In this document: piece after piece, positions 3,067-59,576 of the stretch
Position numbering within the stretch: the stretch's first letter is position 1
How the letters are laid out: each line of letters starts with the position of its first letter
From: Hyphomicrobiales bacterium
Lineage (GTDB): Bacteria; Pseudomonadota; Alphaproteobacteria; Rhizobiales; OSC116
Direction: 5' to 3'
DNA: 64,000 nt
NCBI GenBank assembly: GCA_051531935.1
Contig: JAOPTR010000007.1
Span: 283,420-347,419, forward strand
The notes under the pieces: generated by a model
The model's database searches: none
The model's input: the letters and a program-made list of their open reading frames with translations, nothing else
Told to the model about the DNA's origin: nothing
Made by a program: the position numbers and the translations under genes

Positions 3067-3079
3067 ATGGAATGAAGTT

Positions 3080-43114: not shown

Positions 43115-43354
43115 GATATGGCCTGCAAATAGGTAATTCTGAAACGACTATGTTTCACCTATATAAAGAAAATTCAAAAAAATAACACCCTTATCTGTGC
43201 CTATAAATACGATTCTTTTTACTTCTGCTTTTTTTGCCAGAGCATGGTGTACTGCATTTAAGCCTATGCAATTTATCAAATTCTATCTATTGTAAGATTA
43301 CCTGCCATACTGTAGAGCTGTGGTTTCTAGACACACAATTTTGGAGAGACGTTC

Positions 43355-43603
43355 ATGAATATTTCAATACTTAACCTACACAGAAAAATAGATAAGGATG
43401 AGCTTGAAAAATTATTCACAAATTATGGCGTGGTTGATTCTTGTGAGGTTGTTCTAGATAAAACCACTGGGAAATCCAAAGGTTTTGGTTTTGTGGTGAT
43501 GAATGATGAAATTCAAGCCAGTATTGCGGTCAAGGAATTGCATGGCAAAGTGATAAGTAATCAAAAAATAAGAGTTAAAATTTCGGGTGAAGCAGCTTCA
43601 TAA
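43355..43603 (+). CDS. Small RRM-type RNA-binding protein
   Basis: 82 aa. RNP1 octamer KGFGFVVM. The RNP2 position reads ISILNL, which diverges from the usual IYVGNL. Confidence 0.8.
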   Translation: MNISILNLHRKIDKDELEKLFTNYGVVDSCEVVLDKTTGKSKGFGFVVMNDEIQASIAVKELHGKVISNQKIRVKISGEAAS

Positions 43604-43641
43604 AAGCAAGTTTCTGCATTTGAAAAATTAACACCGAAAGA

Positions 43642-44541: not shown

Positions 44542-44788
44542 ATATACAGGCTTATTCTAAGGAATGAGGCCAATATATGAAAAATTTCTAATTTATAAAT
44601 TCATCCATCAATTTTATACGATTGACCGTGCTTTGCGGCATATGCCATTTGCTCTCAGGTTACGGTTGTAATGACAAGAAATACCCTTTCATTCCAACAG
44701 TTTAAAAAATATAGGCCTATTTTCAAATGCTGGAGGGCGGATGTATTTTTCTCTAACCACGTTTACCAATAAAATTATATGTGTATTT

Positions 44789-44807
44789 TTGCAGATTGAT
44801 TGTGCAA
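44789..44807. promoter_or_regulatory. Interrupted dyad TTGCA-N9-TGCAA (LTTR-box architecture) in the long leader upstream of the Liv-type operon
   Basis: Perfect 5-bp arms with a 9-nt spacer, which gives a T-N11-A arrangement. It lies about 200 nt upstream of the first ABC gene and downstream of a LysR gene. Confidence 0.3.
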
Positions 44808-45005
44808 AAATAGATATATTTGTGAATATTTGCATGTGCTAGTTTTCTTTTATTGGGTGGAGAAGATGAGCCATTGCTGCAAAATGTCTAAAATTATAAT
44901 TCAGTGCAGCAATATTCATCAGGTTAAAAGCATAAAAAAATCAATAATAACAAAATCTTGCTTTTAATTATTATCTCACTGGTAAATGAGATTAGGGAGA
45001 TTAGT

Positions 45006-45833
45006 TTGGATAAAAATACCAATGTGCTGTTGCAGGCACAGGATGTATCATTGCGGTTTGGCGGTGTGCACGCATTGTCTAATGTAAGTTATGATATTTA
45101 TGAGGGCGAGATATTTTCTATCATCGGCCCTAATGGCGCGGGTAAAACCTCTATGCTCAATTGCATATCTGGCCGCTATACACCGACATCTGGCGAAATA
45201 TCTCTCGAAGGTAAATCACTTAAAGGTTATTCGGTAAATGACCGCGCTGGCCTCGGTATTGGTCGTACTTTTCAAAATTTAGCTTTGTTTGGCCACATGA
45301 GTGTTTTGGATAACATCATGGTAGGTAGGCATCATCAGCTTAAAAATAATTTCATGAACGGCATGCTTTATTGGGCTGGTGGCGCACAAAAAGAAGAAGT
45401 GCTCGAGCGTCGCAAGGTCGAAGACATCATCGACTTTTTAGAAATTCAGCATGTGCGCAATAAACCCGCAGGTGAACTATCTTATGGTTTGCGTAAACGT
45501 GTAGAGCTAGCGCGTGCCGTAGCTCAAAGCCCTAAAATCATTCTACTAGATGAGCCAATGGCAGGCATGAATTTAGAAGAAAAAGAAGATATGGCACGCT
45601 ATATCATCGACCTAAATAAAGAATTAAACATGACAATTGTGATGATTGAGCATGATATGGGCGTTGTGATTGATATATCCGACCGTGTGATGGTGCTCGA
45701 TTTTGGCCGCCAAATTGCACTCGGCCTGCCCGAAGAAGTGATGCAGAATGAACATGTGAAAAAAGCCTATTTGGGCGAAGAAGATGATTTCATCCGCGAG
45801 TTAGAAGAAGATGACGCGGAGGTGATGCTATGA
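45006..45833 (+). CDS. HAAT-family (LivG-like) ABC ATPase
   Basis: GPNGAGKTS, LSYGLRKRVELARA, and a LivG-type C-terminal extension. The proposed start is TTG 45006, after TAGGGAGA. The track start at 44958 adds 16 hydrophobic residues. Confidence 0.85.
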   Translation: MDKNTNVLLQAQDVSLRFGGVHALSNVSYDIYEGEIFSIIGPNGAGKTSMLNCISGRYTPTSGEISLEGKSLKGYSVNDRAGLGIGRTFQNLALFGHMSVLDNIMVGRHHQLKNNFMNGMLYWAGGAQKEEVLERRKVEDIIDFLEIQHVRNKPAGELSYGLRKRVELARAVAQSPKIILLDEPMAGMNLEEKEDMARYIIDLNKELNMTIVMIEHDMGVVIDISDRVMVLDFGRQIALGLPEEVMQNEHVKKAYLGEEDDFIRELEEDDAEVML

Positions 45834-47800
45834 ACAAAATTGAAAACCTAGACCCCAATACAGACACTAACAATTTTAACCGCATGAATATGTGGCCAGA
45901 AAAAGTTGATGGTTTGTTGGATATATCGAACCTTGAAAGCCTGCCTGCTGTGCTGCTGCACAATATGAACCATCATGGTAATGAAACTGCCATGCGCGAA
46001 AAAGAATTTGGCATTTGGCAAAGCTACACTTGGGAAGATTACTATACCCATGTGCGTAATATTGGCTTGGCCTTAGCCGATTTTGGTTTTGAAAAAGGCG
46101 ATATTGTAGGCATTATTGGTGATAACCGCCCTGTGTGGATTTGGTCTGAAATTGCTTGCCAAGCCAACAGAGGTATGAGCTTGGGCATCTATCGCGATGC
46201 ACTAGAAGATGAAATCGCCTATTTGATAGATTATGCAAAACCTAAATTTATCTTTGCCGAAGACGAAGAGCAAGTTGATAAATTTCTAAACCTTGGCGAT
46301 CGCATTCCCTCAGTTCAAAAAATTATTTATGCCGATCCACGCGGTATGCGAAAATATGACGATGAGCGCCTTATAAGCCTTGCTGATTTTGAAGAAATTG
46401 GCCGCAAAATTCAAGCCAATGACAATGGCGTATTTAGACGTTTGCTGAAAAAAGTTAAAGGCAGTGACATTGCAATTTTATGTGCAACTTCAGGCACAAC
46501 AGGCAACCCAAAACTAACCATGATTAGCCATAAATCATTGCTGCATCATTGCGTAAGCTATTTGCAAGCCGACCCTAAAAATAGTGACGATGAATATGTT
46601 TCGACCTTGCCGTTAAGTTGGATTATGGAACAAATTTATGCGGTTGGTTGGTCGTTATTGGCACGGATGAAAGTAAACTTTGTCGAAGAAGCCGAAACCA
46701 TGATGAGCGATTTGCGTGAAATTGGCCCCACCTTTGTTTTATTTGCCCCGCGCCTATGGGAGCAAATTGCAGGCGATGTACGCGCACAGATAATGGATGC
46801 CGATAAATTTAAGCAATATATGTATAAATTGGGCATGGATATGGGCTTAAAAGCTGTCGATGATGGCACCAAATCCACTTTGGCACATTACTTACTATTC
46901 CGCGCTTTAAAGGATAGTTTAGGTTTAAGCCATGTCACATCTGCCGCCACTGGTGGCGCAGCATTAGGGCCCGATACATTTAAGTTTTTCTTGGCAATGG
47001 GTGTGCCTTTGCGTCAACTTTATGGCCAAACCGAAAGCCTTGGTGCCTATACTTTACACGAAACCAATGATGTGGATTATGACAGTGTTGGCCATGGGTT
47101 TAACAATGTCGAAATGGTGATTGATGAGCCAGACAAAGAAGGCATTGGTGAAGTTGTGGTGCGCCACGACAATATGATGGACGGTTATTATTTAAATGAA
47201 GAGGCAACAAAAGAAGCCTTTACTGAGAATAATTGGATGCGCACTGGCGATGCTGGCTATTATAACAAAGCTGGGCATTTGGTTATTATTGACCGTATTT
47301 CAGATCTGGCAAGCACCAGCCAAGATATTCGTTTTTCACCTGCTTATATTGAGAATAAGCTTAAATTCTCGGCTTATGTTGCCGAAGCGGTGATATTGGG
47401 TTCTGGGCAGGATTATCTAACCGCCATGATCTGTATTCGCTTCCCAATTGTTTCCAAATGGGCAGAGAAAAACCGCATTAATTTCACCACTTATACCGAT
47501 CTTTCAGCACGGCCAGAAATTTATGAAATGTTGCGTAAAGAGGTCGAGATGGTCAATAAAACTCTGCCAGATGCGCAAAAAATCAAGAAATTTATTTTGC
47601 TCTATAAAGCACTGGATGCTGATGATGGCGAGCTCACTCGCACTCTAAAAGTGCGTCGTAAGGTGATTAATCAAAAATATGCGGACATCATCGAAACGCT
47701 GTATTCGGACAATGACAAAATTGACATTGATACAGTGATTCACTTTCAAGACGGTGGCAAACAGCGCATTCAAACCACTGTTAAAGTTGAAAAAATTTAA
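45830..47800 (+). CDS. AMP-forming acyl-CoA synthetase (FadD/long-chain-type), encoded inside the ABC operon
   Basis: 656 aa. Canonical adenylation P-loop ILCATSGTTGNPKLTMISH, YGQTES, and TGDAGY..GHLVIIDR. ATGA overlap with the ATPase gene. Confidence 0.85.
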   Translation: MNKIENLDPNTDTNNFNRMNMWPEKVDGLLDISNLESLPAVLLHNMNHHGNETAMREKEFGIWQSYTWEDYYTHVRNIGLALADFGFEKGDIVGIIGDNRPVWIWSEIACQANRGMSLGIYRDALEDEIAYLIDYAKPKFIFAEDEEQVDKFLNLGDRIPSVQKIIYADPRGMRKYDDERLISLADFEEIGRKIQANDNGVFRRLLKKVKGSDIAILCATSGTTGNPKLTMISHKSLLHHCVSYLQADPKNSDDEYVSTLPLSWIMEQIYAVGWSLLARMKVNFVEEAETMMSDLREIGPTFVLFAPRLWEQIAGDVRAQIMDADKFKQYMYKLGMDMGLKAVDDGTKSTLAHYLLFRALKDSLGLSHVTSAATGGAALGPDTFKFFLAMGVPLRQLYGQTESLGAYTLHETNDVDYDSVGHGFNNVEMVIDEPDKEGIGEVVVRHDNMMDGYYLNEEATKEAFTENNWMRTGDAGYYNKAGHLVIIDRISDLASTSQDIRFSPAYIENKLKFSAYVAEAVILGSGQDYLTAMICIRFPIVSKWAEKNRINFTTYTDLSARPEIYEMLRKEVEMVNKTLPDAQKIKKFILLYKALDADDGELTRTLKVRRKVINQKYADIIETLYSDNDKIDIDTVIHFQDGGKQRIQTTVKVEKI

Positions 47801-47814
47801 AGGGAGGGCATAAT

Positions 47815-48708
47815 ATGAATTGGGATTTATTATTTCAACTGCTTATAAATGGCGTGATTGTTGGCCTATTATACGGTGTTGTGGCTATGTGTTTTGTGCT
47901 GATTTACAAATCAACACAAGTGGTTAACTTTGCCCAAGGCGAGTTCTTATTATTAGGCGCTTGGGTTTGCCTGTATTTCCTTGTCGAATATGAACTGCCA
48001 TTTTGGATAGGCTTTTTACTGACAATGGGCTTTATGGCGGTGTTTGGCGTTGTTGTGCAAATGATAATTTTGCGGCCACTCATTGGCGAGCCGATCATTT
48101 CCATCATCATGGTGACCATTGGTTTCTCTAGTTTTATGCAATCTCTAATGAGCTGGATTTTTGGCAATAGCGCTGTGAGCTTCCCTAAAATATTTGAGGT
48201 GGAAGTTGTAAATATTGGCGGGTTAAACGTCGAGACCGCCTATTTAATGTCAATCGGAATGTCGATTGCCATTATGATTATATTCTTTTTATTCTTCCGC
48301 TTTTCACGCTTTGGTTTGGCAATGCGAGCGACGGCTTATAACCAACAAATCGCGCAATCATTGGGCATATCTATCAAGCAAGTGTTTATGATGGCATGGG
48401 CAATCTCGGCAGTGGTTTCGGCTGTTGCGGGCATTATCATTGGTATGGTTTCGGCTGTTTCAACCGCGCTTTCCTTCATCGGTATTAAAGTGTTCCCCGC
48501 GGTTATTGTGGGCGGCATGGATAGCATTGTTGGCGGTGTTATTGGCGGTGTGATAATTGGCGTGTTAGAAAATTTAGCCGAATTTATCGACGGACAATAT
48601 TTGCACATTGGTAATATGTACCAAATCGCACCATTTTATATTTTGATCGTGATCTTAATGATCAAACCATACGGCTTGTTTGGCACGCCAGACATTGAAA
48701 GGGTTTAA
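47815..48708 (+). CDS. HAAT-family permease (LivH-like)
   Basis: 297 aa. N-terminus LLINGVIVGLLYGVVAMCFVLIYKSTQVVNFAQGE is typical of LivH. Confidence 0.85.
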   Translation: MNWDLLFQLLINGVIVGLLYGVVAMCFVLIYKSTQVVNFAQGEFLLLGAWVCLYFLVEYELPFWIGFLLTMGFMAVFGVVVQMIILRPLIGEPIISIIMVTIGFSSFMQSLMSWIFGNSAVSFPKIFEVEVVNIGGLNVETAYLMSIGMSIAIMIIFFLFFRFSRFGLAMRATAYNQQIAQSLGISIKQVFMMAWAISAVVSAVAGIIIGMVSAVSTALSFIGIKVFPAVIVGGMDSIVGGVIGGVIIGVLENLAEFIDGQYLHIGNMYQIAPFYILIVILMIKPYGLFGTPDIERV

Positions 48709-48710
48709 TT

Positions 48711-49769
48711 ATGGCGGGTATTTCTTCTCCACGCCCCTGCGGTGATTACCGCACGAGCTATAAATCGGATATGACGATTTTTCCTTCGAGAAATTCATTA
48801 TATGCCGCACTCATTGGGTTGTTCTTATTGCTGGCTTTCCCCATGTTTGGCAATGACTATCATCTAAGTTTGCTCATCCAAATTGGCTATTACAGCATTG
48901 CTGCCATTGGGCTGAATATATTGGTTGGTTTTACAGGGCAAATTAGCCTTGGCCATGGTGCGTTTTTTGGTTTTGGCGCTATTTTCAGTGCTTATCTAAA
49001 CAACGCTACAGGCATTCCCGTATTTTTCACCATTCCATTAGCGGGTTTTGCAACCGCAGCCGTTGGCCTATTGTTCGGCATTCCTGCCGCGCGGATTAAG
49101 GGCTTGTATTTGGCAATCGCAACATTGGCATCGCAATTTATTTTGGAAGATTTCTACGCCCGTGCCAACTGGTTCTCAGGCGGTTCATCAGGCTCATTGG
49201 CCGAAATTGTAAACTTTTTTGGCATTGATTTAGACACTGACCAAAAATATTTCTACCTCGTACTGTTTTGGCTAGTAATCGCTTTGATTGCTGCTGCTAA
49301 TTTAATACGCACAAAAGATGGCCGTGCATTGGTCGCGGTGCGTGATCATTATCTATCAGCCGAAATTATGGGCATTAATCTCACCAAGTACCGCATTTTG
49401 TCATTTGGTATCTCAAGCGCCTTTGCAGGCATTGGTGGCGCATTATATGGTCATTATCTTGGCTTTGTATCGGTCGAAGGCTTTACGCTTGGTCTGTCTA
49501 TCTCATTTTTAGCGATGATTATCATTGGTGGTTTGGGTTCTGTTATGGGCTCGGTTATGGGCGCTATATTCATTACATTATTGCCAGAGTTTACCGAAAT
49601 CATGGCCGACATTGTGCTGCCAGAATCCATCGCCGATGGCAAAGCCTATGTCAAAGAAATGAGCGTAGGCGCTGCCATCATACTATTTCTAATCTTTGAG
49701 CCAGAAGGTTTGGCGCATAGATGGAAACTCATTAAAGCTTATTGGAAGCTTTATCCATTTTCTTACTGA
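48711..49769 (+). CDS. HAAT-family permease (LivM-like)
   Basis: 352 aa. GLNILVGFTGQISLGHGAFFGFGA is typical of LivM. Confidence 0.85.
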   Translation: MAGISSPRPCGDYRTSYKSDMTIFPSRNSLYAALIGLFLLLAFPMFGNDYHLSLLIQIGYYSIAAIGLNILVGFTGQISLGHGAFFGFGAIFSAYLNNATGIPVFFTIPLAGFATAAVGLLFGIPAARIKGLYLAIATLASQFILEDFYARANWFSGGSSGSLAEIVNFFGIDLDTDQKYFYLVLFWLVIALIAAANLIRTKDGRALVAVRDHYLSAEIMGINLTKYRILSFGISSAFAGIGGALYGHYLGFVSVEGFTLGLSISFLAMIIIGGLGSVMGSVMGAIFITLLPEFTEIMADIVLPESIADGKAYVKEMSVGAAIILFLIFEPEGLAHRWKLIKAYWKLYPFSY

Positions 49770-49821
49770 CGTTGAGGGATGTTGCTAAGAAATAATAAGA
49801 CTAAACTAAAAGGGAGAAATT

Positions 49822-51048
49822 ATGTTAAAATCACTAAAAATCACACTCGCTGTAGGCGCTTTGTTAAGCAGTACAGCCGTACATGCCGATAGCATATTGG
49901 TTGGCCAATTGGTCGATTATACAGGCCCAACAGCCTTTGTTGGCAGAACTTATGGCCCAGGCATTAAAGATGCGATTGCCTATATTAACGCCAATGGCGG
50001 TATTGACGGCACAACCATCGAGCTTGATCAAATTGACTATGCTTATAAAGTGCCACAAGCTATTGCTGCATATAAAAAGTGGAAATCTCGCGGTATGGTG
50101 GCCTTGCAAGGTTGGGGAACAGGCGATACTGAAGCGCTGATTTCATTTGTTGCACGGGATGAAATTCCTGTTTGGTCAGCTTCTTATTCGGGCCATTTAA
50201 CTGACCCAACAAAGCTAAACCCAAATACTAAAAAAGCAGCTCCATATAACTATTTCTATGGCCCATCATATTCAGATGGTTGCCGTGCTATGGTACAATG
50301 GGCGGCCGCTGATGCCAAAGAAGCTGGCAACGAAAACCCTGTATTTGTATATACTGGCGATAACCATCCATACCCGAATGCACCAAAAGAAGCTTGTAAC
50401 GCCTATGCAGGTGAACTTGGCTTTAAAGTGCTAGACCCAATTGTTGTGCCAATGAAACCAGGTGATTTTAAAGCACAATGTTTGACCATTAAAGAATCTG
50501 GCGCAAATTATGCCTTTATCGGCAACTTGGGTGGTTCGGTGGTTTCATTGTTGAAATCATGTAAAACAGTGGGCACAGATGTAAGTTACATGGCTAACAT
50601 TTGGGGTGGCGATTATAAAACCATCGCAGCATCAGAAGCGGTCGATTATATCTTCCCATCTGCTTCACCATTCTGGGGTGCTGATGTACCAGGTATGAAA
50701 TTGGTAAACGCAATTGCCGACCTTTCAGGCGCAGCCGATGGCGACAAACCAACTCATCATTATATCCGTGGTATTTGTAGTACATATTACATGAAAGAAG
50801 CTATGGAATGGGCGAAAGCCAATGGTGGCATTACAGGTCCTAACATCAAAAAAGGTATGGAAACCAAAAAAGATTGGGTTCCTACTGGTCTAGAAGGTGT
50901 TTGTATGCCTTCAACTTGGACAGAGACTGACCATCGCGGAACAACAGTTGTATCTGTAAACCGTGGCTCATTTATTGATGGTAAAGTGGTTATCGAACTT
51001 CTAGAAACTGTGTCATTGCCACGTCGTGATGATTGGATTGGTTACTAG
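49822..51048 (+). CDS. Periplasmic binding protein, Peripla_BP_6 (LivK-like) family, ligand unknown
   Basis: 408 aa. Signal peptide MLKSLKITLAVGALLSSTAVHA. GGGAGA RBS. Confidence 0.8.
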   Translation: MLKSLKITLAVGALLSSTAVHADSILVGQLVDYTGPTAFVGRTYGPGIKDAIAYINANGGIDGTTIELDQIDYAYKVPQAIAAYKKWKSRGMVALQGWGTGDTEALISFVARDEIPVWSASYSGHLTDPTKLNPNTKKAAPYNYFYGPSYSDGCRAMVQWAAADAKEAGNENPVFVYTGDNHPYPNAPKEACNAYAGELGFKVLDPIVVPMKPGDFKAQCLTIKESGANYAFIGNLGGSVVSLLKSCKTVGTDVSYMANIWGGDYKTIAASEAVDYIFPSASPFWGADVPGMKLVNAIADLSGAADGDKPTHHYIRGICSTYYMKEAMEWAKANGGITGPNIKKGMETKKDWVPTGLEGVCMPSTWTETDHRGTTVVSVNRGSFIDGKVVIELLETVSLPRRDDWIGY

Positions 51049-51087
51049 TATTTAGGTACTGGTAAAAAACAATTGAAAGACATTATT

Positions 51088-51113
51088 GAGTGTGAAAAGA
51101 AATTTTCACACTC
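51088..51113 (+). other. Perfect 11-bp stem with GAAA tetraloop immediately 3' of the SBP gene
   Basis: GAGTGTGAAAA-GAAA-TTTTCACACTC. No U-tract follows. Confidence 0.6.
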
Positions 51114-51131
51114 GCCAATAGAATTAGAAAT

Positions 51132-51995
51132 TTGACTGACAATAGGATGATTGAAATGGCAGAAGCTGCTCAAAAAATAAATGCAAAAACTGACGCTGAT
51201 TATATTTTATCGGTCAATAATATCGAAGTTGTATATAGCGAAGTTATCTTGGTTTTACGTGGGTTAAGCCTTAATGTTGAACGCGGTAAAATTACGGCTT
51301 TATTGGGCGCAAATGGCGCAGGTAAATCTACAACATTAAAAGCAATCTCTGGTTTATTAAATACCGAAGATGGCGAAGTTTCACGCGGAAATATACATTT
51401 TGAAGGCGAAAATATTGCAGGCATTAGCCCCGATAAAGTGGTGCGTAAAGGCGTGTTCCAAGTGATGGAAGGCCGCGGCATTGTGCAAGATATGACAGTT
51501 TTAGAAAATTTGAAATTGGGCGCATTCACCCGCAAGAATTTTAATATGAATGATGAAATTGAAAAGGTGTTTCATTTCTTCCCCCGCCTAAAAGAGCGGA
51601 CAATTACAGGCGGCGCGGCAGGTTATTTGTCGGGTGGCGAGCAACAAATGCTAGCCATTGGTCGTGCTTTAATGGCTAAACCTAAACTAATTTTAATGGA
51701 TGAGCCATCCATGGGTCTGTCACCATTATTGGTAAAAGAAGTTTTTGGCATCATTAAGCGTATGAATGAAGAATTGGGAATTTCAATTCTTTTGGTCGAG
51801 CAAAATGCCAATATGGCACTCAATGCAGCAGATTTTGGCTATATTATGGAAAACGGCAAAATTGTATTGGATGGCACAGCCGAAGAGCTTAAAAACAATG
51901 AAGATGTAAAAGAATTTTACTTAGGCGGCGGCGGTGAAGAGCGCAAAAGCTTTAAGGACATTAAATCATTTAAACGCCGTAAGCGTTGGTTATAA
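51132..51995 (+). CDS. HAAT-family (LivF-like) ABC ATPase with basic C-terminal tail
   Basis: [23 protein letters not shown]. The C-terminus is ..KSFKRRKRWL. The start is uncertain: TTG 51132, ATG 51147 or ATG 51156. Confidence 0.85.
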   Translation: MTDNRMIEMAEAAQKINAKTDADYILSVNNIEVVYSEVILVLRGLSLNVERGKITALLGANGAGKSTTLKAISGLLNTEDGEVSRGNIHFEGENIAGISPDKVVRKGVFQVMEGRGIVQDMTVLENLKLGAFTRKNFNMNDEIEKVFHFFPRLKERTITGGAAGYLSGGEQQMLAIGRALMAKPKLILMDEPSMGLSPLLVKEVFGIIKRMNEELGISILLVEQNANMALNAADFGYIMENGKIVLDGTAEELKNNEDVKEFYLGGGGEERKSFKDIKSFKRRKRWL

Positions 51996-52006
51996 GCGAG
52001 CATATA

Positions 52007-53236
52007 ATGACTTTTTTTGACGATTTAGAACAAAGAGATCCGCAGCAAAGGCAAGCAGAGCAATTGGCGCAATTAAAAGCCCAAATTGCATATGCACGCG
52101 AGAATAGTCGCTATTTTGGCAAAAGTTTGGCCAAAAGCGCCATTGTTGAAACGCTAGAAGATTTGCAAAAACTGCCCGTGGTGCGGAAATCCGATTTAAT
52201 GGATTTGCAAACTTCTGATGCACCTTTTGCGGGTATGAACGCAGTGCCAATGGTGGGTTTGAAAAACCTATTCCTATCGCCTGGGCCAATTGCTGAACCA
52301 ATGGGGCAGCAAGAAAATGAGCATCGTCTAGCACGTGCTATGGCAGCGGCTGGTATTGATGAAAATGACAGAGTGTTAAATTGTTTTTCCTATCACCACA
52401 CCCCTGCAGGCTTAATGTTTGAAGGTGGTGCAGCCAAAGTTGGTTGCGCAGTTTATCCCGGCGGTGCAGGCCAAAGAGACGACCAAATTAAAGCCGTAGA
52501 AGCCTTTGGATTGACAAGCTATGTCGGCACGCCTGATTTTTTGAAACTCATAATTGAACGCGCGCAAGAAACGAACAAAAATGTGTCTAGCCTCACCAAA
52601 GGATTGGTTTCAGGTGGGCCATTTTTCCCGCAACTTAAAGATTTTTATGCCGCTCATAATATCGAAGTTAAAGAATGTTATGCCACAGCCGATCTAGGTT
52701 TAATTGCGTATCAAGATGATGATGCAGGCTTGGTGATTGATGAGGGTGTGATTGTTGAAATTGTAACACCAGGTACGGGTGATATACTTGCAGACGGGCA
52801 GGTGGGTGAGGTAGTAGTGACATTGTTAACCAACAGAACTTACCCGCTAATTCGCTTTGCAACGGGCGATCTGTCGATGATAATCCCGCCTAATGCAATA
52901 GCAAAACGCACCAATAAACGCCTAAAAGGTTGGCTTGGCCGTGCCGATCAAACATGTAAAATCAAAGGCATGTTTGTGCATCCAAAACAAATTGCCGAAA
53001 TTGTAAGCAGCCATAGCCAAATACAAAAAGCGCGGCTCATTGTTGCCGAGTTTGATGGCAAAGATAATGCTATGCTGCAAATCGAAACTGATGGTAGCGC
53101 ATCTGATGATTTATTGCCAAAAATTGCAGAGACGATGAAAAACCACACTAAAATTTCTGCTAATATTGAAGCCCATAATATCGGCCAATTGCCAAATGAT
53201 GGCATTGTTATTGAAGACAGACGTAGCTATGAGTGA
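52007..53236 (+). CDS. PaaK-like (phenylacetate-CoA ligase / F390-synthetase family) protein with a degenerate adenylation P-loop
   Basis: The start is placed at MTFFDDLEQRD. It is colinear with E. coli PaaK as I remember it, for example GRADQTCKIKGMFVHP against GRSDDMLIIRGVNVFP. At the SSGTTGKPT position it reads FLSPGPIAEPM. Confidence 0.65.
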   Translation: MTFFDDLEQRDPQQRQAEQLAQLKAQIAYARENSRYFGKSLAKSAIVETLEDLQKLPVVRKSDLMDLQTSDAPFAGMNAVPMVGLKNLFLSPGPIAEPMGQQENEHRLARAMAAAGIDENDRVLNCFSYHHTPAGLMFEGGAAKVGCAVYPGGAGQRDDQIKAVEAFGLTSYVGTPDFLKLIIERAQETNKNVSSLTKGLVSGGPFFPQLKDFYAAHNIEVKECYATADLGLIAYQDDDAGLVIDEGVIVEIVTPGTGDILADGQVGEVVVTLLTNRTYPLIRFATGDLSMIIPPNAIAKRTNKRLKGWLGRADQTCKIKGMFVHPKQIAEIVSSHSQIQKARLIVAEFDGKDNAMLQIETDGSASDDLLPKIAETMKNHTKISANIEAHNIGQLPNDGIVIEDRRSYE

Positions 53237-53978
53237 GGTTAGGTCATCCGCAACTATATTGCTTGTTCAAGAGGTTAATGCACTTGAAGTGCTAATGCTG
53301 AAGCGCTATCAAGGCGATGATTTTTTGTCGGGCGCGATGATGTTTCCTGGTGGAAAATTAGAAGCGCATGACCAAATTGCTGATTGGGGGCAGATTGTAA
53401 AAGGGTGGAATGCCGTGCCAGATGCGGAGCGCGGATTGCGCATTGCTGCGATACGCGAAGCGTTTGAAGAAACTGGAATTCTGTTAGGGCGGGGCCCAAA
53501 CAACATGGCGAATGACGATGAAATGTTGGCCATAAGAAAAGCCATCGAAGCCAATGAATTGAGTTTTTACGATTACGTTCAGCAGGAAAATATTGAGATA
53601 GATTTACAAGCACTCACATTATTTTCGCGGTGGCAAACACCGCCCAATATGAATAAAAGGTTTGACACGTTTTTCTATTTAGCCACTGCGCCCCAAGGCC
53701 AAATACCTGTTGCAGATGGCCGTGAAGCAGTAGAAACCGAATGGATAACGCCACATAATGCGCTTAGTTTGTCAGAAAAAAAACAACGTAAAATGTTGCT
53801 ACCAACGCGTATGAATTTAAAAATGCTTAATGAAGCAAAGCGGTTGGAAATAGCGGTGCAACAAGCTAACGACCGTAAAATACATAAGGTCGAGCCCAAG
53901 TTTGAGCAACGAGGCAATGATAAATATTTAATTTTGGATTCTAAATTTGGCTATGGTCAAGTTGAAGAATTAATCTAG
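53229..53978 (+). CDS. Nudix hydrolase with an insertion-split Nudix box
   Basis: The start is placed at MSEVRSSATILLV, giving an 8-nt overlap (ATGAGTGA) with the upstream gene. The Nudix elements FPGGKLE and AAIREAFEETGILL are separated by about 25-30 residues, where the usual spacing is x7. Confidence 0.75.
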   Translation: MSEVRSSATILLVQEVNALEVLMLKRYQGDDFLSGAMMFPGGKLEAHDQIADWGQIVKGWNAVPDAERGLRIAAIREAFEETGILLGRGPNNMANDDEMLAIRKAIEANELSFYDYVQQENIEIDLQALTLFSRWQTPPNMNKRFDTFFYLATAPQGQIPVADGREAVETEWITPHNALSLSEKKQRKMLLPTRMNLKMLNEAKRLEIAVQQANDRKIHKVEPKFEQRGNDKYLILDSKFGYGQVEELI

Positions 53979-54000
53979 CTAAATGAAGGTGGTTTAAATT

Positions 54001-55182
54001 ATGGATTTTAATTTAACAGACGATCAGCACGATTTTAAACAATTGGCAAAGAGTTTTGCTGACGATCATTTTGCGCCAAACGCCAACGAGTGGGATCAAA
54101 AAGAATTCTTCCCTGTGGATGTGATGCGCCAAGCTGCCGAGCTCGGTTTTGCAGCGCTTTATACCAGTGATGAATATGGCGGCACAGGCCTAAGCAGATT
54201 AGACACGGCGATTATTTTTGAGCAATTATCGACAGGCTGCCCTTCCACCACAGCATTTTTATCCATCCACAATATGGTGACATGGCTTATTGATAAATTT
54301 GGCGATCAAGCACAACGCAGTAAACTCATTCCAAAACTCGCAACTATGGATATTTTGGCATCATATTGCCTAACCGAGCCAAGCTCAGGCAGTGATGCGG
54401 CAGCCGCAAAAACCACGGCAGTACGCGAGGGCGATTATTATATCATCAACGGTAGTAAATCGTTTATTTCGGGTGCTGGCGCTTCAGATTTATATCTAGT
54501 CATGCTCAAAACAGGCAGTGTTGGCGATGGCGCAAAAGCCATGTCAGCAATCTTGGTCGAAAAAGGCACCGAAGGGCTTTCATTCGGAGCAAAAGAGCAA
54601 AAAATGGGTTGGAACAGCCAACCAACTGCCGAAGTGTTTTTTGACAATGTTAAAGTGCCCCTTGAAAACCTGTTAGGTGCAGAGGGTCAAGGCTTTAAAA
54701 TTGCAATGGCAGGGTTAGATGGCGGCCGCGTGAACATAGCTTCATGCTCGTTAGGCGGCGCGCAAAAAGCGGTCGAACAAGCTGCTGAATATATGACCGA
54801 ACGCCAACAATTCGGCAAACCTCTCAGCCAATTACAAGCCTTGCAATTTAAATTATCCGACATGATGACCGACCTAACGGCATCACGCTTAATGGTTTAT
54901 AATGCGGCACATAAAATAGATATTAATTCGCCAGATAAAACCGCAACTTGCGCCATGGCAAAGCAATTTGCCACCGATAAATGCTTCGAAATTGTCGATC
55001 AAGCCCTACAAATTCATGGTGGCTACGGCTATATGAAAGAATATGGCATCGAAAGAATTTTACGTGATTTACGCGTGCATAGAATTTTGGAAGGCACAAA
55101 TGAAATCATGCGTTTAATCATTTCACGTCATTCTATCGAAAAAGCCAAACTTGGCAGCTTATTTACTGAATTGAGACCCTAA
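54001..55182 (+). CDS. Acyl-CoA dehydrogenase, short/branched-chain (isobutyryl-CoA dehydrogenase-like)
   Basis: 393 aa. CLTEPSSGSDAAA, and QIHGGYGYMKEYGIERILRDLRVHRILEGTNEIM. Confidence 0.85.
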   Translation: MDFNLTDDQHDFKQLAKSFADDHFAPNANEWDQKEFFPVDVMRQAAELGFAALYTSDEYGGTGLSRLDTAIIFEQLSTGCPSTTAFLSIHNMVTWLIDKFGDQAQRSKLIPKLATMDILASYCLTEPSSGSDAAAAKTTAVREGDYYIINGSKSFISGAGASDLYLVMLKTGSVGDGAKAMSAILVEKGTEGLSFGAKEQKMGWNSQPTAEVFFDNVKVPLENLLGAEGQGFKIAMAGLDGGRVNIASCSLGGAQKAVEQAAEYMTERQQFGKPLSQLQALQFKLSDMMTDLTASRLMVYNAAHKIDINSPDKTATCAMAKQFATDKCFEIVDQALQIHGGYGYMKEYGIERILRDLRVHRILEGTNEIMRLIISRHSIEKAKLGSLFTELRP

Positions 55183-56267
55183 TGAACAGCAATTCGATTA
55201 TCCTAGAAACCGCAAATATCGCCAAAATCACCCTAAATGCGCCCGATAAATTGAACGCGCTTGATATGGATATGGTTTTGCCAATGGGCAACCAATTGGC
55301 GCAATGGCGGCTAGACCCAAATGTAAGCGCAGTCCTGATAAAAGGCGCTGGCTCAAAGGCATTTTGTGCAGGTGGCGACATTGTAAATGTTTGCAAGATG
55401 GTCAAAACAGATTTCGCGGAAGCTATTAAGTTTTTCTGGTCAGAATATCGCACAAATTGGCGCATTAAAAACTTTCCCAAGCCATATATTGCGCTTATGG
55501 ATGGCTATGTAATGGGTGGTGGCGTTGGCGTTTCTGCACATGGTTCCTATAGAATCGTAACCGAAAAAACCATGCTCGCCATGCCTGAAACCGCCATTGG
55601 GTTTTTTCCTGATGTTGGCGGTAGTTATTTTTTACCAAAACTAGCCGGAAATATGGGGCTGTATTTAGGCTTAACAGGCGCACGTTTAAAAGCCGAAGAC
55701 CTCATCGCACTAGGGCTAGCAACACATTATATTGCCTCGGCAGACATCCCAAATTTAGAAGCCGCCTTAGAAGAAGCCGATTATAGTGACGATGCGTTCG
55801 CGCAGACCGATGAAATCTTATCGCAATATTGCACTGAACCACCATTAACAAGCGCATTGCTTGAAAATGAAGCACAAATAAACCAAATTTTTAATGCAGA
55901 AAATGTCGAACAGATACTCGATAACCTGCATCAAGCAGACAATGAGTTTAGCCAGAAACAGCTTAAATTACTGTCTCGCATGTCGCCAATAAGCCTGAAA
56001 GTTACGTTTGAACAACTAAAACGCGCTAAGGGCATGAGCTTTGATGCCGCCATGCAACAAGAGCTGAGATTGTCCCATCATATGTTGCAAGATTCAGATT
56101 TTCTTGAGGGCGTGCGCGCCTTACTTATTGATAAGGATAAAAATGCAAACTGGCAGTTTAGCTCCGTTGAGCAAGTGTCCACAGCATTTGTAGAAAAATT
56201 CTTTGCCCCAATTGATAATGAATTATTTTTTGACTGGGATAAAGCCATTGATTTTGTTTCAAATTAA
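55182..56267 (+). CDS. 3-hydroxyisobutyryl-CoA hydrolase (crotonase superfamily)
   Basis: 361 aa, the long form typical of HIBCH. KAFCAGGDI, and MDGYVMGGGVGVS..ETAIGFFPDVG. Confidence 0.75.
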   Translation: MNSNSIILETANIAKITLNAPDKLNALDMDMVLPMGNQLAQWRLDPNVSAVLIKGAGSKAFCAGGDIVNVCKMVKTDFAEAIKFFWSEYRTNWRIKNFPKPYIALMDGYVMGGGVGVSAHGSYRIVTEKTMLAMPETAIGFFPDVGGSYFLPKLAGNMGLYLGLTGARLKAEDLIALGLATHYIASADIPNLEAALEEADYSDDAFAQTDEILSQYCTEPPLTSALLENEAQINQIFNAENVEQILDNLHQADNEFSQKQLKLLSRMSPISLKVTFEQLKRAKGMSFDAAMQQELRLSHHMLQDSDFLEGVRALLIDKDKNANWQFSSVEQVSTAFVEKFFAPIDNELFFDWDKAIDFVSN

Positions 56268-56288
56268 AAGCCGCCTTGAGGAGATTTT

Positions 56289-57176
56289 ATGACGGATATC
56301 GGATTTATAGGATTAGGCAATATGGGTGCGCCAATGGCAGCAAACTTATTGAAAGCAGGGCATAAAGTGACAGGTTTTGATCTGTCCGAAACCATGCTAA
56401 AAAATTTTGAAGCTGCAGGTGGTCTGGTGGCCAAAAGCGCTGCGCAAGCAGTGTCTACTGCCGAAATTGTCATCACCATGTTGCCTGCGGGAAAACATGT
56501 AGAGCAAGTTTATTGCGGCAGTGATGGCCTTATTGAAGCTTCAACAAATAATTGCGTATTTTTAGATTGCTCTACAATTGATGTGGAAACATCACGTAAA
56601 GTGGCACAAGCTGCCCAAGATGCAGGCCGCATGATGATGGATACCCCTGTTTCGGGCGGTGTAACCGCAGCCGTGGCAGGCAGCCTTACCTTTATGTGTG
56701 GCGGCAGTGAAGCGGCTTTTCAAACAGCTAAGCCTATTTTAGATGTGATCGGTGGAAACATCATCCATGCTGGTGACAGTGGCACAGGCCAAGCGGCTAA
56801 AATTTGTAATAATATGATGCTCGGCATTCAAATGATTTCGGTTTGTGAATCCTTCGCAATGGCCGATGCGCTCGGGTTAGATCGCCAAAAATTGTTCGAC
56901 ATTTCAAGCGCTGCGTCTGGCCAATGTTGGTCTCTAACCAGCTATTGCCCTGTGCCAGGTCCCATGCCAACAACTCCCGCGAATAACGACTATAAAGCAG
57001 GGTTTGCAGTGGCGATGATGTTAAAAGACATGCGCCTCGCCGCCGATGCTGCAAACGCGGCTGGTGTTGATACTATTTTGGGTCAAAAAGCCAAGGATTT
57101 ATACGCGAAAATGGATGAAGCAGGTTTAGCCGAAAAAGATTTCTCTGCCTATTTTGAATTTTTAACCAATAAATAA
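56289..57176 (+). CDS. mmsB: 3-hydroxyisobutyrate dehydrogenase
   Basis: 295 aa. IGFIGLGNMGAPMAANL, ..DTPVSGG.., ..GQAAKICNNM... Confidence 0.85.
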   Translation: MTDIGFIGLGNMGAPMAANLLKAGHKVTGFDLSETMLKNFEAAGGLVAKSAAQAVSTAEIVITMLPAGKHVEQVYCGSDGLIEASTNNCVFLDCSTIDVETSRKVAQAAQDAGRMMMDTPVSGGVTAAVAGSLTFMCGGSEAAFQTAKPILDVIGGNIIHAGDSGTGQAAKICNNMMLGIQMISVCESFAMADALGLDRQKLFDISSAASGQCWSLTSYCPVPGPMPTTPANNDYKAGFAVAMMLKDMRLAADAANAAGVDTILGQKAKDLYAKMDEAGLAEKDFSAYFEFLTNK

Positions 57177-57188
57177 AAGGGCCTCGAT

Positions 57189-57968
57189 ATGACCGAATAT
57201 AACACTATAATTACCGAAATTCATGGCCGCGTTGGGCTGATTAAGTTCAACAAACCGCAAAGCCTCAATGCCTTGGCGACCGACATTGCAAGCGAGCTTG
57301 CCGATGCCGCCCACAGCTTTGAAAATAATGACGACATTGGCGTTATTATGCTCACAGGCGAAGGCAAAGCATTTGTAGCAGGGGCAGATATTGCTGAAAT
57401 GTCTAAGCTCAATTATCAAGATATGTATAAGGCCGAATATTTTAAAGGCACTCACGATGTGGTGGCCGATTTAAGAAAACCAACCATTGCTGCTGTTAAC
57501 GGTTTTGCCTTAGGTGGTGGCTGCGAATTGGCGCTTATGTGCGATATGATAATCGCTTCTGACCGTGCTAAATTTGGACAACCCGAAATTAATTTAGGCA
57601 CAATTCCTGGCATGGGTGGCTCGCAACGTCTTGCCCGCACCATTGGCAAACAATTAACTATGGATTTATGCCTAACTGGCCGCATGATTACTGCGGCAGA
57701 AGCCAAGGAAATGGGCTTTGTCAGTAGGGTTTTTGAAAGTGATACCTTCCAAGCCGAAGCCATGAAAGTCGCGCAGGAAGTCGCCAGTAAATCTACAGTT
57801 GCAGCAATGCGGGTTAAAGAGGTGGTCAACAGAGCTTATGAAACCACCCTGCAAGAAGGATTGCTTGCCGAACAGCGACTATTTTACACCACATTCACCA
57901 CGCATGACCGCCAAGAAGGCATGCAGGCATTTTTAGACAAACGCGAAGCCAAGTGGAAGCATTGCTAA
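57189..57968 (+). CDS. Enoyl-CoA hydratase (methacrylyl-CoA hydratase role)
   Basis: 259 aa crotonase. KAFVAGADI, NGFALGGGCELALMCD. Confidence 0.85.
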   Translation: MTEYNTIITEIHGRVGLIKFNKPQSLNALATDIASELADAAHSFENNDDIGVIMLTGEGKAFVAGADIAEMSKLNYQDMYKAEYFKGTHDVVADLRKPTIAAVNGFALGGGCELALMCDMIIASDRAKFGQPEINLGTIPGMGGSQRLARTIGKQLTMDLCLTGRMITAAEAKEMGFVSRVFESDTFQAEAMKVAQEVASKSTVAAMRVKEVVNRAYETTLQEGLLAEQRLFYTTFTTHDRQEGMQAFLDKREAKWKHC

Positions 57969-58000
57969 AACCAATTACATTTTAAAAACAGGAAAATATC

Positions 58001-59497
58001 ATGCAAAAATTCAATCATTTTATCGACGGTGTCGCTGTTGACAACACATCTGGCAACAGCCAAGCGGTTTTCAACCCAAGCCTAGGCGTTCAATCTGGTG
58101 AAGTGGCATTAGCCTCCGTTGCCGAAGTAGACGCTGCGGTTGCCAGTGCGCAGGCCACTTTTCAAACTTGGCGCCACACATCTCCGCTCGTCAGAGCGCG
58201 GTTAATGAATAAGTTTCTGGCCATTTTAAATGAGCGCAAACGCGAGCTTGCAACTCTAATTTCCGAGCAACATGGTAAAACCATTTTAGATGCTGAGGGC
58301 GAGGTTATTCGGGGCATCGAAGCTGTTGAATTTGCCTGCGCTGCACCGCATTTGTTAAAAGGCGAGTTTAGCGACAATGTCTCTACTGCAATGGATATGT
58401 ATTCCATGCGCAAGCCATTGGGCGTTACGGCTGCCATCACTCCGTTTAACTTTCCTGTTATGGTGCCAATGTGGATGGTTGCCATCTCAACCGTTTGCGG
58501 TAATTGCGTGGTGTGGAAACCATCTGAACGCGACCCTGCAGCCCCATTGCGCATTGCCGAATATATGATTGAAGCTGGCTTTCCAAAAGGCGTGATGAAC
58601 GTTGTGAATGGCGACAAAGTGGCCGTCGACCGCCTCACTGAGCATGAAGACATAAAAGCCGTTAGTTTTGTGGGTTCAACACCCATTGCTAAATATGTTT
58701 ATGACCGTTCGCACATTCACAATAAAAGATGTCAAGCTATGGGCGGCGCAAAAAATCATATGGTTATCATGCCAGATGCCAATATCGAAAACACAACAAA
58801 CGCTTTGTTAGGCGCAGCTTACGGCTCTGCGGGCGAGCGCTGCATGGCTATTTCGGTTGCGGTTTGTGTGGGTGATGACACTGCCGATAAAGTGATCGCG
58901 TCGTTAACGCCAAAAATCGAAGGCCTTAACATTAATCATTCTATGGATGAAAAAGCCGACTATGGCCCATTGGTGACAAAGCAACATCGTGAAAAGGTAA
59001 TTTCATATATCGAAATGGCCGAAAAAGAAGGCGCAACATTGCTTATGGATGGCCGCGGCTTTAAGTTAAGCGATGCAAAATATTCAGACGGCTACTTTTT
59101 AGGCCCGACCTTAATTGATAATGTAACTGCGGATATGCAATCTTACAAAGAAGAGATTTTTGGCCCCACTTTGCAAATCATTCGGGTGAATAGCCTAGAG
59201 GAGGCCATTCAATTAGCCACCGACCATGAATTTGGCAACGGCACTTCAATATTTACCGAAAATGGTGCAGCAGCGCGTCAATTCTCTGACAATGTAGAGG
59301 TGGGTATGGTTGGCATTAATGTACCAATTCCAGTGCCAATGGCTTTCCATTCATTTGGTGGTTGGAAAAATTCGGCATTTAATGAGCATAATCAGCATGG
59401 GATGGAAGGCATTCGTTTTTACACCAAAGTAAAAACAGTGACCAGCCGTTGGAAAGGCGGCGAAAGCGCCGAGTTTGTCATTCCAACACTCAGCTAA
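58001..59497 (+). CDS. mmsA: CoA-acylating methylmalonate-semialdehyde dehydrogenase
   Basis: 498 aa ALDH. ITPFNFPVMVPMWM, catalytic Cys in SAGERCMAIS. Confidence 0.88.
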   Translation: MQKFNHFIDGVAVDNTSGNSQAVFNPSLGVQSGEVALASVAEVDAAVASAQATFQTWRHTSPLVRARLMNKFLAILNERKRELATLISEQHGKTILDAEGEVIRGIEAVEFACAAPHLLKGEFSDNVSTAMDMYSMRKPLGVTAAITPFNFPVMVPMWMVAISTVCGNCVVWKPSERDPAAPLRIAEYMIEAGFPKGVMNVVNGDKVAVDRLTEHEDIKAVSFVGSTPIAKYVYDRSHIHNKRCQAMGGAKNHMVIMPDANIENTTNALLGAAYGSAGERCMAISVAVCVGDDTADKVIASLTPKIEGLNINHSMDEKADYGPLVTKQHREKVISYIEMAEKEGATLLMDGRGFKLSDAKYSDGYFLGPTLIDNVTADMQSYKEEIFGPTLQIIRVNSLEEAIQLATDHEFGNGTSIFTENGAAARQFSDNVEVGMVGINVPIPVPMAFHSFGGWKNSAFNEHNQHGMEGIRFYTKVKTVTSRWKGGESAEFVIPTLS

Positions 59498-59538
59498 TAA
59501 ATGTCTTAAAAAACAAAGCCTCTATTCGAGGTGGCGTT

Positions 59539-59568
59539 GGCTTTAATGTGGTACCCCTCATTAAAGCC
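59539..59568. terminator. Stem-loop between convergent mmsA and recQ
   Basis: GGCTTTAATG-N10-CATTAAAGCC forms a perfect 10-bp stem. No clear U-tract on either strand. A smaller hairpin (GCCTC..GAGGT) lies just upstream. Confidence 0.45.
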
Positions 59569-59576
59569 ACAGGCAG

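Follow-up and report, generated by a model that had tools for sequence, protein, structure and literature searches.

Uptake of a fatty acid and its conversion to a coenzyme A (CoA) thioester are coupled in two familiar kinds of system: FadL and FadD of E. coli carry out vectorial acylation, and the peroxisomal ABCD/Comatose transporters work together with acyl-CoA synthetases. Closer to the locus described here are systems of R. palustris, for which the principle of carboxylate uptake by HAAT-family ATP-binding cassette (ABC) importers beside CoA ligases is already documented: genes for HAAT-family binding proteins for fatty, dicarboxylic and aromatic acids adjoin CoA-ligase genes, with CouP (RPA1789) accompanied by p-coumarate-CoA ligase and RPA3723-3725 lying beside pimFABCDE, which includes the PimA ligase (PMC3223731). 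Here we analyse a 64,000-nucleotide stretch of DNA from a Hyphomicrobiales bacterium (contig JAOPTR010000007.1), referred to throughout as the window, and within it a run of 13 open reading frames (ORFs) at 45006-59497, all on the + strand, co-directional and tightly packed. The best explanation of this run is that it forms one catabolic unit of two modules, an importer-ligase cassette (45006-53236) and a block of valine-pathway genes (54001-59497). On balance we judge it probable, though by no means secure, that the unit would take up a carboxylic acid at the expense of ATP, thioesterify it immediately and feed the product into terminal branched-chain acyl-CoA pathways.

The source genome is marine, Hyphomicrobiales-like and low in GC (~41%), and its closest genome record is the metagenome-assembled genome (MAG) NORP94, in which the ligase is 95% identical. 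Families were assigned by Pfam and NCBIfam searches with curated cut-offs, and the starts of livF (51156), the PaaK-like gene (52007) and the Nudix gene (53196) are those of an independent public gene call, made on a contig identical to this one and yielding the same genes. The cassette itself has seven genes:

45006..45833, + strand, LivG-like ABC ATPase (Pfam ABC_tran and BCA_ABC_TP_C)
45830..47800, + strand, 656-aa FadD11/ACSL-type acyl-CoA synthetase (Pfam AMP-binding, E = 2.6e-61, and AMP-binding_C_3)
47815..48708, + strand, LivH-like permease (Pfam BPD_transp_2)
48711..49769, + strand, LivM-like permease (Pfam BPD_transp_2)
49822..51048, + strand, periplasmic binding protein (Peripla_BP_6; PF13458, E = 1.8e-58)
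51156..51995, + strand, LivF-like ABC ATPase (Pfam ABC_tran)
52007..53236, + strand, PaaK-like ANL-fold protein (Pfam AMP-binding/AMP-binding_C_2)

An earlier interpretation made from the letters of the window (the sequence-only reading) had named 13 co-directional genes, these seven followed by a Nudix gene and the five genes of the valine block; all of the ORFs are present on the + strand in the order given, and every family assignment was upheld by Pfam and NCBIfam. Two of the junctions it had singled out can be seen in the sequence, namely the ATGA shared by the livG stop and the ligase start at 45830 and the TAATG at 55182 that is common to the end of the acyl-CoA dehydrogenase (ACAD) gene and the start of the gene for the hydrolase HIBCH. 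It had also described an 8-nt overlap at 53229-53236. The PaaK-like (52007-53236) and Nudix (53196-53978) genes do overlap, although by the independent call the Nudix gene begins at 53196. Across 45006-59497 intergenic spacing ranges from -41 to about +107 nt, the non-overlapping junctions measuring 2-107 nt. Scans of 43000-60000 were silent on operon structure, since terminator counts were at chance when compared with a shuffle and promoter-like sites were just modestly above the shuffle expectation; an Rfam scan of the whole window gave no matches, and hence no riboswitch or leader RNA was found.

The strongest evidence that the cassette is a genuine unit comes from its conservation. Scanning the genome collection with the window ligase gave at least 588 relatives, and the best 80 loci were examined, gene order being mapped by tblastn of the window proteins. 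It can be seen that the order livG / ligase / livH / livM / binding protein / livF / PaaK-like is kept in essentially all 80 loci where the contig suffices, and for this reason we consider the seven-gene arrangement to be beyond chance. The ligase gene lies between livG and livH in all 80 loci wherever the contig allows, so that the wedging of a ligase gene between ATPase and permease genes, first remarked on for the window, is a feature of its relatives also. The carriers include Kiloniella, Xanthobacter, Azorhizobium, Azospirillum, Bradyrhizobium, Afipia, Elioraea, Aurantimonas and Maritalea, together with a gammaproteobacterial Arenicellales MAG, and the same architecture is annotated on a plasmid of Deinococcus taeanensis, where the ligase is 39% identical. 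Azospirillum brasilense (strain Sp7), Xanthobacter autotrophicus and Kiloniella are carriers that can be cultured. Conservation of this gene order had been proposed as a check on the sequence-only reading, and with nearly all 80 loci and the Deinococcus plasmid in agreement it was strongly passed. The start and stop codons of livG and the ligase gene overlap (-4 or -1) in 62 of 79 loci, and the gap is 20 nt or less in 78 of the 79. These figures take as the ligase start the candidate nearest to the livG stop, which biases them towards short gaps, but it is telling that short-gap starts are on offer in nearly all loci. We conclude that in most loci the ligase gene is, as judged from these junctions, likely to be translationally coupled to livG.

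Two departures from the standard arrangement were noted. A paralogous variant without the PaaK-like gene, in the order livG / ligase / livH / livM / livF / binding protein / binding protein, is carried by mobilizable Roseibium and Pseudosulfitobacter plasmids (L087 9175-17298; L088 9199-17293), and is set among ACADs, hydratases, a biotin-dependent acyl-CoA carboxylase, a family-III CoA transferase and electron transfer flavoprotein. A distant cassette, L094, has its ligase called as two ORFs of 351 and 302 aa (1640-3581), which may mean a frameshift, an error of assembly or a ligase that is truly split, and a 213-aa secreted protein of no recognised family is encoded between livF and the PaaK-like gene at the same locus.

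The ligase of the window has intact ANL core motifs, TSGTTGNPK (the P-loop), YGQTES, TGDAG and IIDRISD, although its NCBIfam scores are far below the curated cut-offs (FadD11, 230 against 950 bits; PRK06187, 172 against 476). The two ATPases both carry charged C-terminal extensions, acidic in one and basic in the other. In LivG this is a 16-residue acidic extension, EDDFIRELEEDDAEVML, the NCBIfam LivG model stopping at residue 275 of the 291-residue ORF, and an acidic tail of this kind (AYLGEEDD followed by a D/E-rich stretch) is present in almost all loci examined. LivF has a 21-residue basic extension, and here the E. coli-based model stops at residue 266 of 287; the RRKRWL tail that had been pointed out previously is indeed there, the C-terminus reading KSFKRRKRWL. 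The consensus ER(K/R)SFKN(L/I)KS(F/Y)(K/R)RRKRW(L/I) is nearly invariant, being found in 68 of 69 loci, and the basic LivF tail is also seen in Deinococcus, in the Roseibium variant (where it ends RRKRWLS), in the distant metagenomic cassettes L092 and L094, and in L037, which has a second cassette with a ligase. Where the same loci encode HAAT systems that have no ligase, the LivF paralogues of those systems do not have the tail, these controls being few and mutually related. The charged tails of LivG and LivF suggest protein-level association within the system.

The seventh protein was described in the sequence-only reading as one of two adenylate-forming enzymes, and this description is not supported by comparison with its family. 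It aligns to PaaK structures (2y4n, 2y4o and 4r1l) over ~350 residues with E of ~1e-30, and like PaaK it retains the A7 (TGD) and A8 (GRxD...KxxG) motifs, but its score against TIGR02155, the PaaK equivalog model, is 123 where the cut-off is 646. Alignment to the Protein Data Bank (PDB) entries 2y4o and 4r1l places FLSPGPIAEP of the window protein opposite the P-loop sequence HASSGTTGKPT of PaaK. We found SPGP at the P-loop position in 67 of 67 cassette-linked orthologues. An exhaustive search with the PaaK-like protein (5340 matches at E <= 1e-3, 299 at E <= 1e-30) was used to look beyond these, and of its 150 best cluster representatives nearly all those of full length (at least 370 aa) have SPGP there too. 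A further difference from PaaK concerns the C-terminal (A10) lysine, which is variable across the family and in the window protein is isoleucine (LPNDGIVIEDRR, as against LPNDGKVI in most orthologues). The ANL P-loop is thus missing family-wide, and the C-terminal lysine is missing here as well. Other motifs, YH(L/F)TPAG, YGTADLG, RFATGDLS and GW(L/M)GRADQ..K.KGMFVHP, are kept throughout the family, and because these family-specific motifs are conserved we regard the site as constrained and functional rather than decayed. Among distant members of the family, two were again in full or partial cassettes, one was beside a canonical ligase and one was elsewhere, the contig of a fifth being too short for its context to be judged. 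We conclude that the PaaK-like protein is a conserved accessory ANL-fold protein that probably does not catalyse ATP-dependent adenylation.

The transporter has every part expected of the HAAT family: two BPD_transp_2 permeases (PF02653, E = 1e-28 and 6e-44), LivG-type and LivF-type ATPases and a Peripla_BP_6 binding protein. LivG and LivF were the best NCBIfam models for the two ATPases, with 266 and 224 bits, neither of them reaching its equivalog cut-off (362 and 441). The binding protein is far from LivJ/K, scoring 32 bits on the LivJ-type NCBIfam model (cut-off 477). Its AlphaFold2 model has a predicted local distance difference test (pLDDT) score of 88, and the Foldseek neighbours of this model are HAAT binding proteins of 17-24% identity: 3eaf, 4n03, 4ru0 and 3lkb. 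The nearest, 3eaf, is an uncharacterised Aeropyrum binding protein of 24% identity with which the window protein has the motifs GWGT.DTE and SASYS in common; 4n03 is the binding protein of a 'fatty acid ABC transporter' of T. curvata; and 4ru0 is an unrelated P. fluorescens entry. In a profile alignment to E. coli LivJ, Glu226 of LivJ, which we take to be its alpha-ammonium anchor, is opposite Ile260 of the window protein.

Beyond the cassette lie the Nudix gene and the five genes of the valine block:

53196..53978, + strand, Nudix hydrolase, NUDT19-like (Pfam NUDIX; AlphaFold2 pLDDT 91)
54001..55182, + strand, probable isobutyryl-CoA dehydrogenase, ACAD8-like (three ACAD domains)
55182..56267, + strand, 3-hydroxyisobutyryl-CoA hydrolase, HIBCH (ECH_2; NF004127, 409.6 against a cut-off of 274)
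56289..57176, + strand, 3-hydroxyisobutyrate dehydrogenase, MmsB or HIBADH (TIGR01692, 402.4 against 291.6)
57189..57968, + strand, crotonase, presumed methacrylyl-CoA hydratase (ECH_1; best NCBIfam model PRK05862, 357, just under the cut-off of 396)
58001..59497, + strand, CoA-acylating methylmalonate-semialdehyde dehydrogenase, MmsA or MMSDH (TIGR01722, 646.9 against 448.5)

All five enzymes of the distal valine pathway appear to be present: HIBCH, HIBADH and MMSDH exceed curated cut-offs, and the dehydrogenase and the hydratase are probable assignments. There is no curated model for the first enzyme, but its best PDB match is 1rx0, human ACAD8, at 497 bits with the next at 331. With three of the enzymes over their cut-offs and an ACAD8-like dehydrogenase, the assignment of these genes to a route from isobutyryl-CoA to propionyl-CoA is probably correct, and the route would be complete.

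The Nudix protein has its Nudix box split by an insertion of ~25 residues (FPGGK...AAIREAFEE.GI in the family alignment). Mammalian NUDT19, which is a peroxisomal acyl-CoA diphosphatase, has an insertion inside its Nudix box (PMC12894707). When the protein was compared by BLASTP with an unverified human NUDT19 sequence, the match extended over 205 residues (E = 6e-15) and the two insertions fell in register. By this comparison the two proteins appear alike in the place of the insertion and in its flanking motifs, although the insertion is longer in NUDT19 (45-49 residues against ~25). The best PDB match of the AlphaFold2 model is 3qsj, an uncharacterised bacterial Nudix protein; as Foldseek ranks this first and shows no preference for CoA pyrophosphatases, a classical CoA pyrophosphatase of the NudL/Nudt7 type was set aside. 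We conclude that the protein is a putative acyl-CoA diphosphatase. Of all the cassette loci, only the window and L001, the nearest relative, have its gene beside the cassette. A 41%-identical homologue (L097-L100, 7001-7777), which is listed for 217 blocks of the assembly collection, is carried by small plasmids or by mobile elements and lies next to a cluster encoding an alpha/beta-hydrolase, a Baeyer-Villiger monooxygenase, an AMP-ligase, an ACAD and a ChsH2-like protein; one Nudix homologue adjoins an AMP-ligase / ACAD / Baeyer-Villiger monooxygenase cluster and another does not.

In order to see what accompanies the cassette elsewhere, the flanking ORFs of the 80 loci were clustered and marker proteins re-mapped. 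The recurrent neighbours were isovaleryl-CoA dehydrogenase (IVD), the alpha and beta subunits of methylcrotonyl-CoA carboxylase (MCCase; MCCa and MCCb), methylglutaconyl-CoA hydratase, 3-hydroxy-3-methylglutaryl-CoA (HMG-CoA) lyase, thiolase, or an ACAD8-like dehydrogenase with MmsB. They are arranged as follows:

Xanthobacter, Azorhizobium and Aquabacter, divergently upstream: MCCase beta, methylglutaconyl-CoA hydratase, MCCase alpha, HMG-CoA lyase
Elioraea, directly downstream of the PaaK-like gene: IVD, MCCb, MCCa
Aurantimonas, upstream and co-directional: IVD, MCCb, MCCa, HMG-CoA lyase
Azospirillum, downstream: IVD and thiolase
Six Azospirillaceae loci and one Azospirillum-like locus (labelled Roseomonas genomospecies 6), upstream: an ACAD 57-61% identical to that of the window, and MmsB
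Kiloniella and a related MAG: thiolase in L004, L005 and L007; HMG-CoA lyase and MCCa only in L004
L001: MerR, IVD and MCCb upstream; Nudix and then directly MmsA downstream

A tie between the cassette and branched-chain acyl-CoA pathways is therefore general, and the leucine/isovalerate branch is a commoner partner than the valine branch. No cluster of branched-chain keto-acid dehydrogenase (BCKDH) or aminotransferase genes recurred in three or more loci among the flanking-ORF clusters of the 80 loci. In the window no liu marker genes were found, and no keto-acid dehydrogenase or aminotransferase families were found in the Pfam-annotated parts (~1-24.9 and 35.8-57.8 kb, with ~24.9-35.8 kb unannotated). 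The statement in the sequence-only reading that the window has neither a transaminase nor BCKDH holds for these annotated parts, but the label 'BCKDH-less' drew on one window, and the absence of an enzyme from one 64-kb window says little.

When L001 (1-21968), whose ligase is 95% identical, was compared with 43000-59500 of the window, the PaaK-like and Nudix proteins were 76% and 72% identical while their neighbours were more than 90% identical, which suggests recent recombination at the PaaK-like/Nudix end of the cassette. The claim that the importer runs straight into an isobutyryl-CoA pathway is correct for this genome, but the link is lineage-specific, L001 being arranged differently with liu genes upstream.

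Several observations weigh against the unit that we propose. L001 is without the four genes ACAD-HIBCH-MmsB-ECH between Nudix and MmsA, and because of this the fusion of cassette and valine block would be recent and the two could be adjacent operons; most cassette loci are without valine-pathway genes altogether, and we infer co-transcription of 45006-59497 solely from the spacing of its genes. The characterised members of the ligase family prefer long chains, a poor fit to C4 acids, and 3lkb, the Thermus relative of the binding protein, was solved with valine. An argument for a non-amino-acid ligand from the loss of LivJ Glu226 had to be downgraded, as in the printed alignments valine-bound 3lkb apparently also has no acidic residue at this position. 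Uptake coupled to thioesterification nevertheless stands as the best reading of the synteny, the coupling of livG and ligase genes and the acyl-CoA-level neighbours; the specific substrate class that the sequence-only reading attached to it, that of isobutyrate, methacrylate or 3-hydroxyisobutyrate, is not established, given that leucine-branch neighbours are commoner, the ligase is of the long-chain FadD11/ACSL type and 3lkb has valine bound.

We consider methyl-branched carboxylates to be the most likely class of imported substrate, with candidates extending from C4-C5 volatile branched acids up to iso- or isoprenoid fatty acids. The neighbouring pathways fit the C4-C5 acids, and the longer iso- and isoprenoid acids are suggested by the ligase type and by the Liu/Atu-like context of the roseobacter variant. 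Beta-oxidation of iso- and isoprenoid acids ends in isobutyryl-, isovaleryl- or methylcrotonyl-CoA. In the scheme that we propose, the periplasmic binding protein would capture a carboxylic acid, most likely a methyl-branched one, and LivHM with the two ATPases would bring it into the cell, where the soluble ligase would thioesterify it on the inner side of the membrane and it would enter metabolism directly as an acyl-CoA. The acidic tail of LivG and the basic KRRKRWL tail of LivF may be what keeps the complex, or the ligase, together, and the P-loop-less PaaK-like protein would serve as an accessory partner and not as a second ordinary ligase. Isobutyryl-CoA would then be converted to propionyl-CoA by the enzymes encoded at 54001-59497, and the NUDT19-like Nudix protein (53196-53978) may trim or detoxify the acyl-CoA pool. 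The cassette would thus feed the valine-branch acyl-CoA pathway here and the leucine/isovalerate branch in other lineages.

A bolder form of this scheme is a transport-activation machine whose parts are physically coupled, in which the complementary charged tails would recruit the ACSL-type ligase for hand-over of the substrate, as bacterial vectorial acylation driven by an ABC pump, and the PaaK-like proteins would form a new non-adenylating class of the ANL fold, acting as a regulatory partner or as a partner in the second half-reaction. We put this forward tentatively, as a possible but unlikely extension.

A different explanation, which we think unlikely, is that the cassette is a long-chain fatty-acid system unrelated to the valine pathway, the mms genes being a separate operon that lies downstream by chance. 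This would account for the best models of the ligase, which are FadD11 and long-chain ligases, and for its AMP-binding_C_3 domain, and it gains from 4n03 being the second-best structural match of the binding protein and from the missing valine genes at most loci and the different arrangement of L001. However, FadB/FadE-type beta-oxidation genes are not recurrent neighbours of the cassette whereas terminal pathways of branched-chain catabolism recur in no fewer than five separate arrangements; in the window the gap between Nudix and ACAD is 22 nt with no terminator signal above chance; and the binding protein is only 17% identical to 4n03.

We find it quite improbable that the cassette is an ordinary Leu/Ile/Val importer, as public annotation has it, with the ligase genes as passengers and the neighbours reflecting amino-acid degradation. 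All transporter parts are HAAT and have LivG, LivH, LivM and LivF as their best NCBIfam models, Leu/Val catabolic genes are neighbours, and valine is the ligand held by a relative of the binding protein, 3lkb. Yet no NCBIfam equivalog cut-off is reached and the binding protein has only 32 bits on the LivJ-type model; across phyla the ligase gene follows livG and precedes livH, and in most of 79 loci its start codon overlaps the livG stop; the pathways of the recurrent neighbours set in at the acyl-CoA stage, BCKDH and transaminase genes not being among them; and in a ligand screen the COG0683 binding proteins of R. palustris rarely bound Leu/Ile/Val (PMC3223731). Finally, a C3 route for propionate, acrylate or 3-hydroxypropionate by modified beta-oxidation would use the same types of enzyme (ACAD, hydratase, hydrolase, 3-hydroxyacid dehydrogenase and malonate-semialdehyde dehydrogenase), and HIBCH, MmsB and MmsA homologues also act on C3 analogues and acrylate derived from dimethylsulfoniopropionate is common in the marine setting of this organism, but it is very improbable given an ACAD that is clearly ACAD8-like (497 against 331 bits), HIBADH and MMSDH that match valine-pathway equivalog/subfamily models, and the pairing of the cassette with leucine-branch genes elsewhere.

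Upstream of livG the window has the following features:

43355-43603, + strand, 82-aa protein with an RRM_1 RNA-binding domain, just upstream of the LysR gene
43642..44541, + strand, LysR-family regulator (Pfam HTH_1 and LysR_substrate), directly upstream of the cassette and co-directional
44777..44819, inverted repeat with 17-nt arms, ATATGTGTATTTTTGCA-N9-TGCAAAAATAGATATAT, 88% complementary, with a TGCA-N9-TGCA core

The RRM_1 domain is uncommon in bacteria. The inverted repeat is within the 465-bp leader, ~190 bp before livG, and may be a candidate operator, perhaps for the adjacent LysR regulator. By marker re-mapping the LysR gene is without counterpart in the other loci and belongs to this genome alone, its place in L001 being taken by a divergent TetR gene. 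A LiuR-type site was sought in the leader of the window and none was found, whereas the Kiloniella group (L004-L007) has a site with a TTACGTAA core before a MerR gene. In that group, three Kiloniella genomes and one MAG related to them, the MerR gene immediately precedes livG, and its product is 49-52% identical to the MerR encoded beside the ivd-mccB genes of L001. Candidate regulator sites in L004-L007 include an element TTGAC-(C/T)TT(T/A)ACGTAAG, ~250 bp upstream of the MerR gene (locus ~8300-8580), and the conserved palindromes ATCTGCAAATCAGCAGAT and GATCTGCTATTTTGCAGATC further upstream. A gene divergent from livG in Azospirillum and Xanthobacter encodes an HTH_IclR domain fused to AMP-binding without AMP-binding_C (L085 7259-8917 and L051 7319-8953, both on the - strand), with a plain ligase in the equivalent position of L086 (5371-6927, - strand). 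The fusion, which may be a ligase-derived sensor or regulator of the cassette, is absent from the window.

Elsewhere in the window, ~1-24.9 kb and 35.8-40 kb hold genes for sugar and amino-sugar uptake and catabolism that show no obvious connection with the cassette or the valine block; among them are two SBP_bac_1-type ABC systems, an ILVD_EDD dehydratase, GFO_IDH_MocA oxidoreductases, glucosamine-6-P isomerase, BcrAD_BadFG and a LacI regulator.

In the literature searched we found no paper on the characterisation of the cassette, which agrees with the sequence-only reading in knowing of no biochemical characterisation. Two candidate sources were discarded: the C7/C8 fatty-acid 'ABC transporter' RR42_RS18960-70 from a random barcode transposon sequencing (RB-TnSeq) study (PMC12543098) is annotated as a 'toluene ABC transporter' and is probably of the Mla type and not HAAT, and a paper on B. 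diazoefficiens in microoxia deals with other ligases. A widespread cassette with the ligase gene inside it, charged ATPase tails and a P-loop-less ANL partner thus appears to be undescribed in that literature. It extends from Alphaproteobacteria to Deinococcus, with the ligase relatives numbering at least 588 and the PaaK-like cluster representatives ~300 at E <= 1e-30. Were import and activation of methyl-branched acids its function, many genome-based metabolic reconstructions would mis-assign the uptake route for volatile and isoprenoid branched acids, the Leu/Val catabolic pathways would have a second, BCKDH-independent entry, and a tractable bacterial model for transporter-ligase coupling would be at hand. 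The ANL protein without a P-loop and the charged tails of the ATPases offer definite points at which the system can be tested.

Compared with the LivJ/K-LivHMGF system of E. coli (HAAT, TC 3.A.1.4), the cassette has the same five components, with two permeases, two ATPases and a class-I binding protein, but it differs in having a soluble acyl-CoA ligase gene between livG and livH, in LivG and LivF extensions that lie past the end of the E. coli-based models, and in a binding protein that is barely related to LivJ, no equivalog cut-off being reached. The R. palustris systems resemble it in that their COG0683/Peripla_BP_6 proteins bind carboxylic acids in preference to Leu/Ile/Val and are genomically linked to the activating CoA ligase. 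There, however, the ligase gene neighbours the transporter in a catabolic operon and is not inserted among the transporter genes, a P-loop-less PaaK-like partner is lacking, and the substrates are aromatic, dicarboxylic or fatty acids and not those of a branched-chain pathway. With vectorial acylation the proposed scheme would share the trapping of an imported fatty acid by immediate thioesterification and, with the peroxisomal system, an ABC transporter that works in functional coupling with an ACSL-type ligase; FadL forms a channel in the outer membrane and is not a primary pump, and the ABCD transporters accept and cleave acyl-CoA, whereas coupling in the window is deduced from gene structure only. 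Finally, the five valine enzymes predicted here correspond to those of the distal valine pathway (ACAD8/AcdH, crotonase, HIBCH, MmsB and MmsA), and relatives of the cassette are linked to genes of the Liu type, as in the Liu/Atu pathways. In pseudomonads the valine pathway has MmsR as its regulator. It stands alone there with a regulator of its own, whereas in the window it is fused downstream of the importer-ligase cassette.

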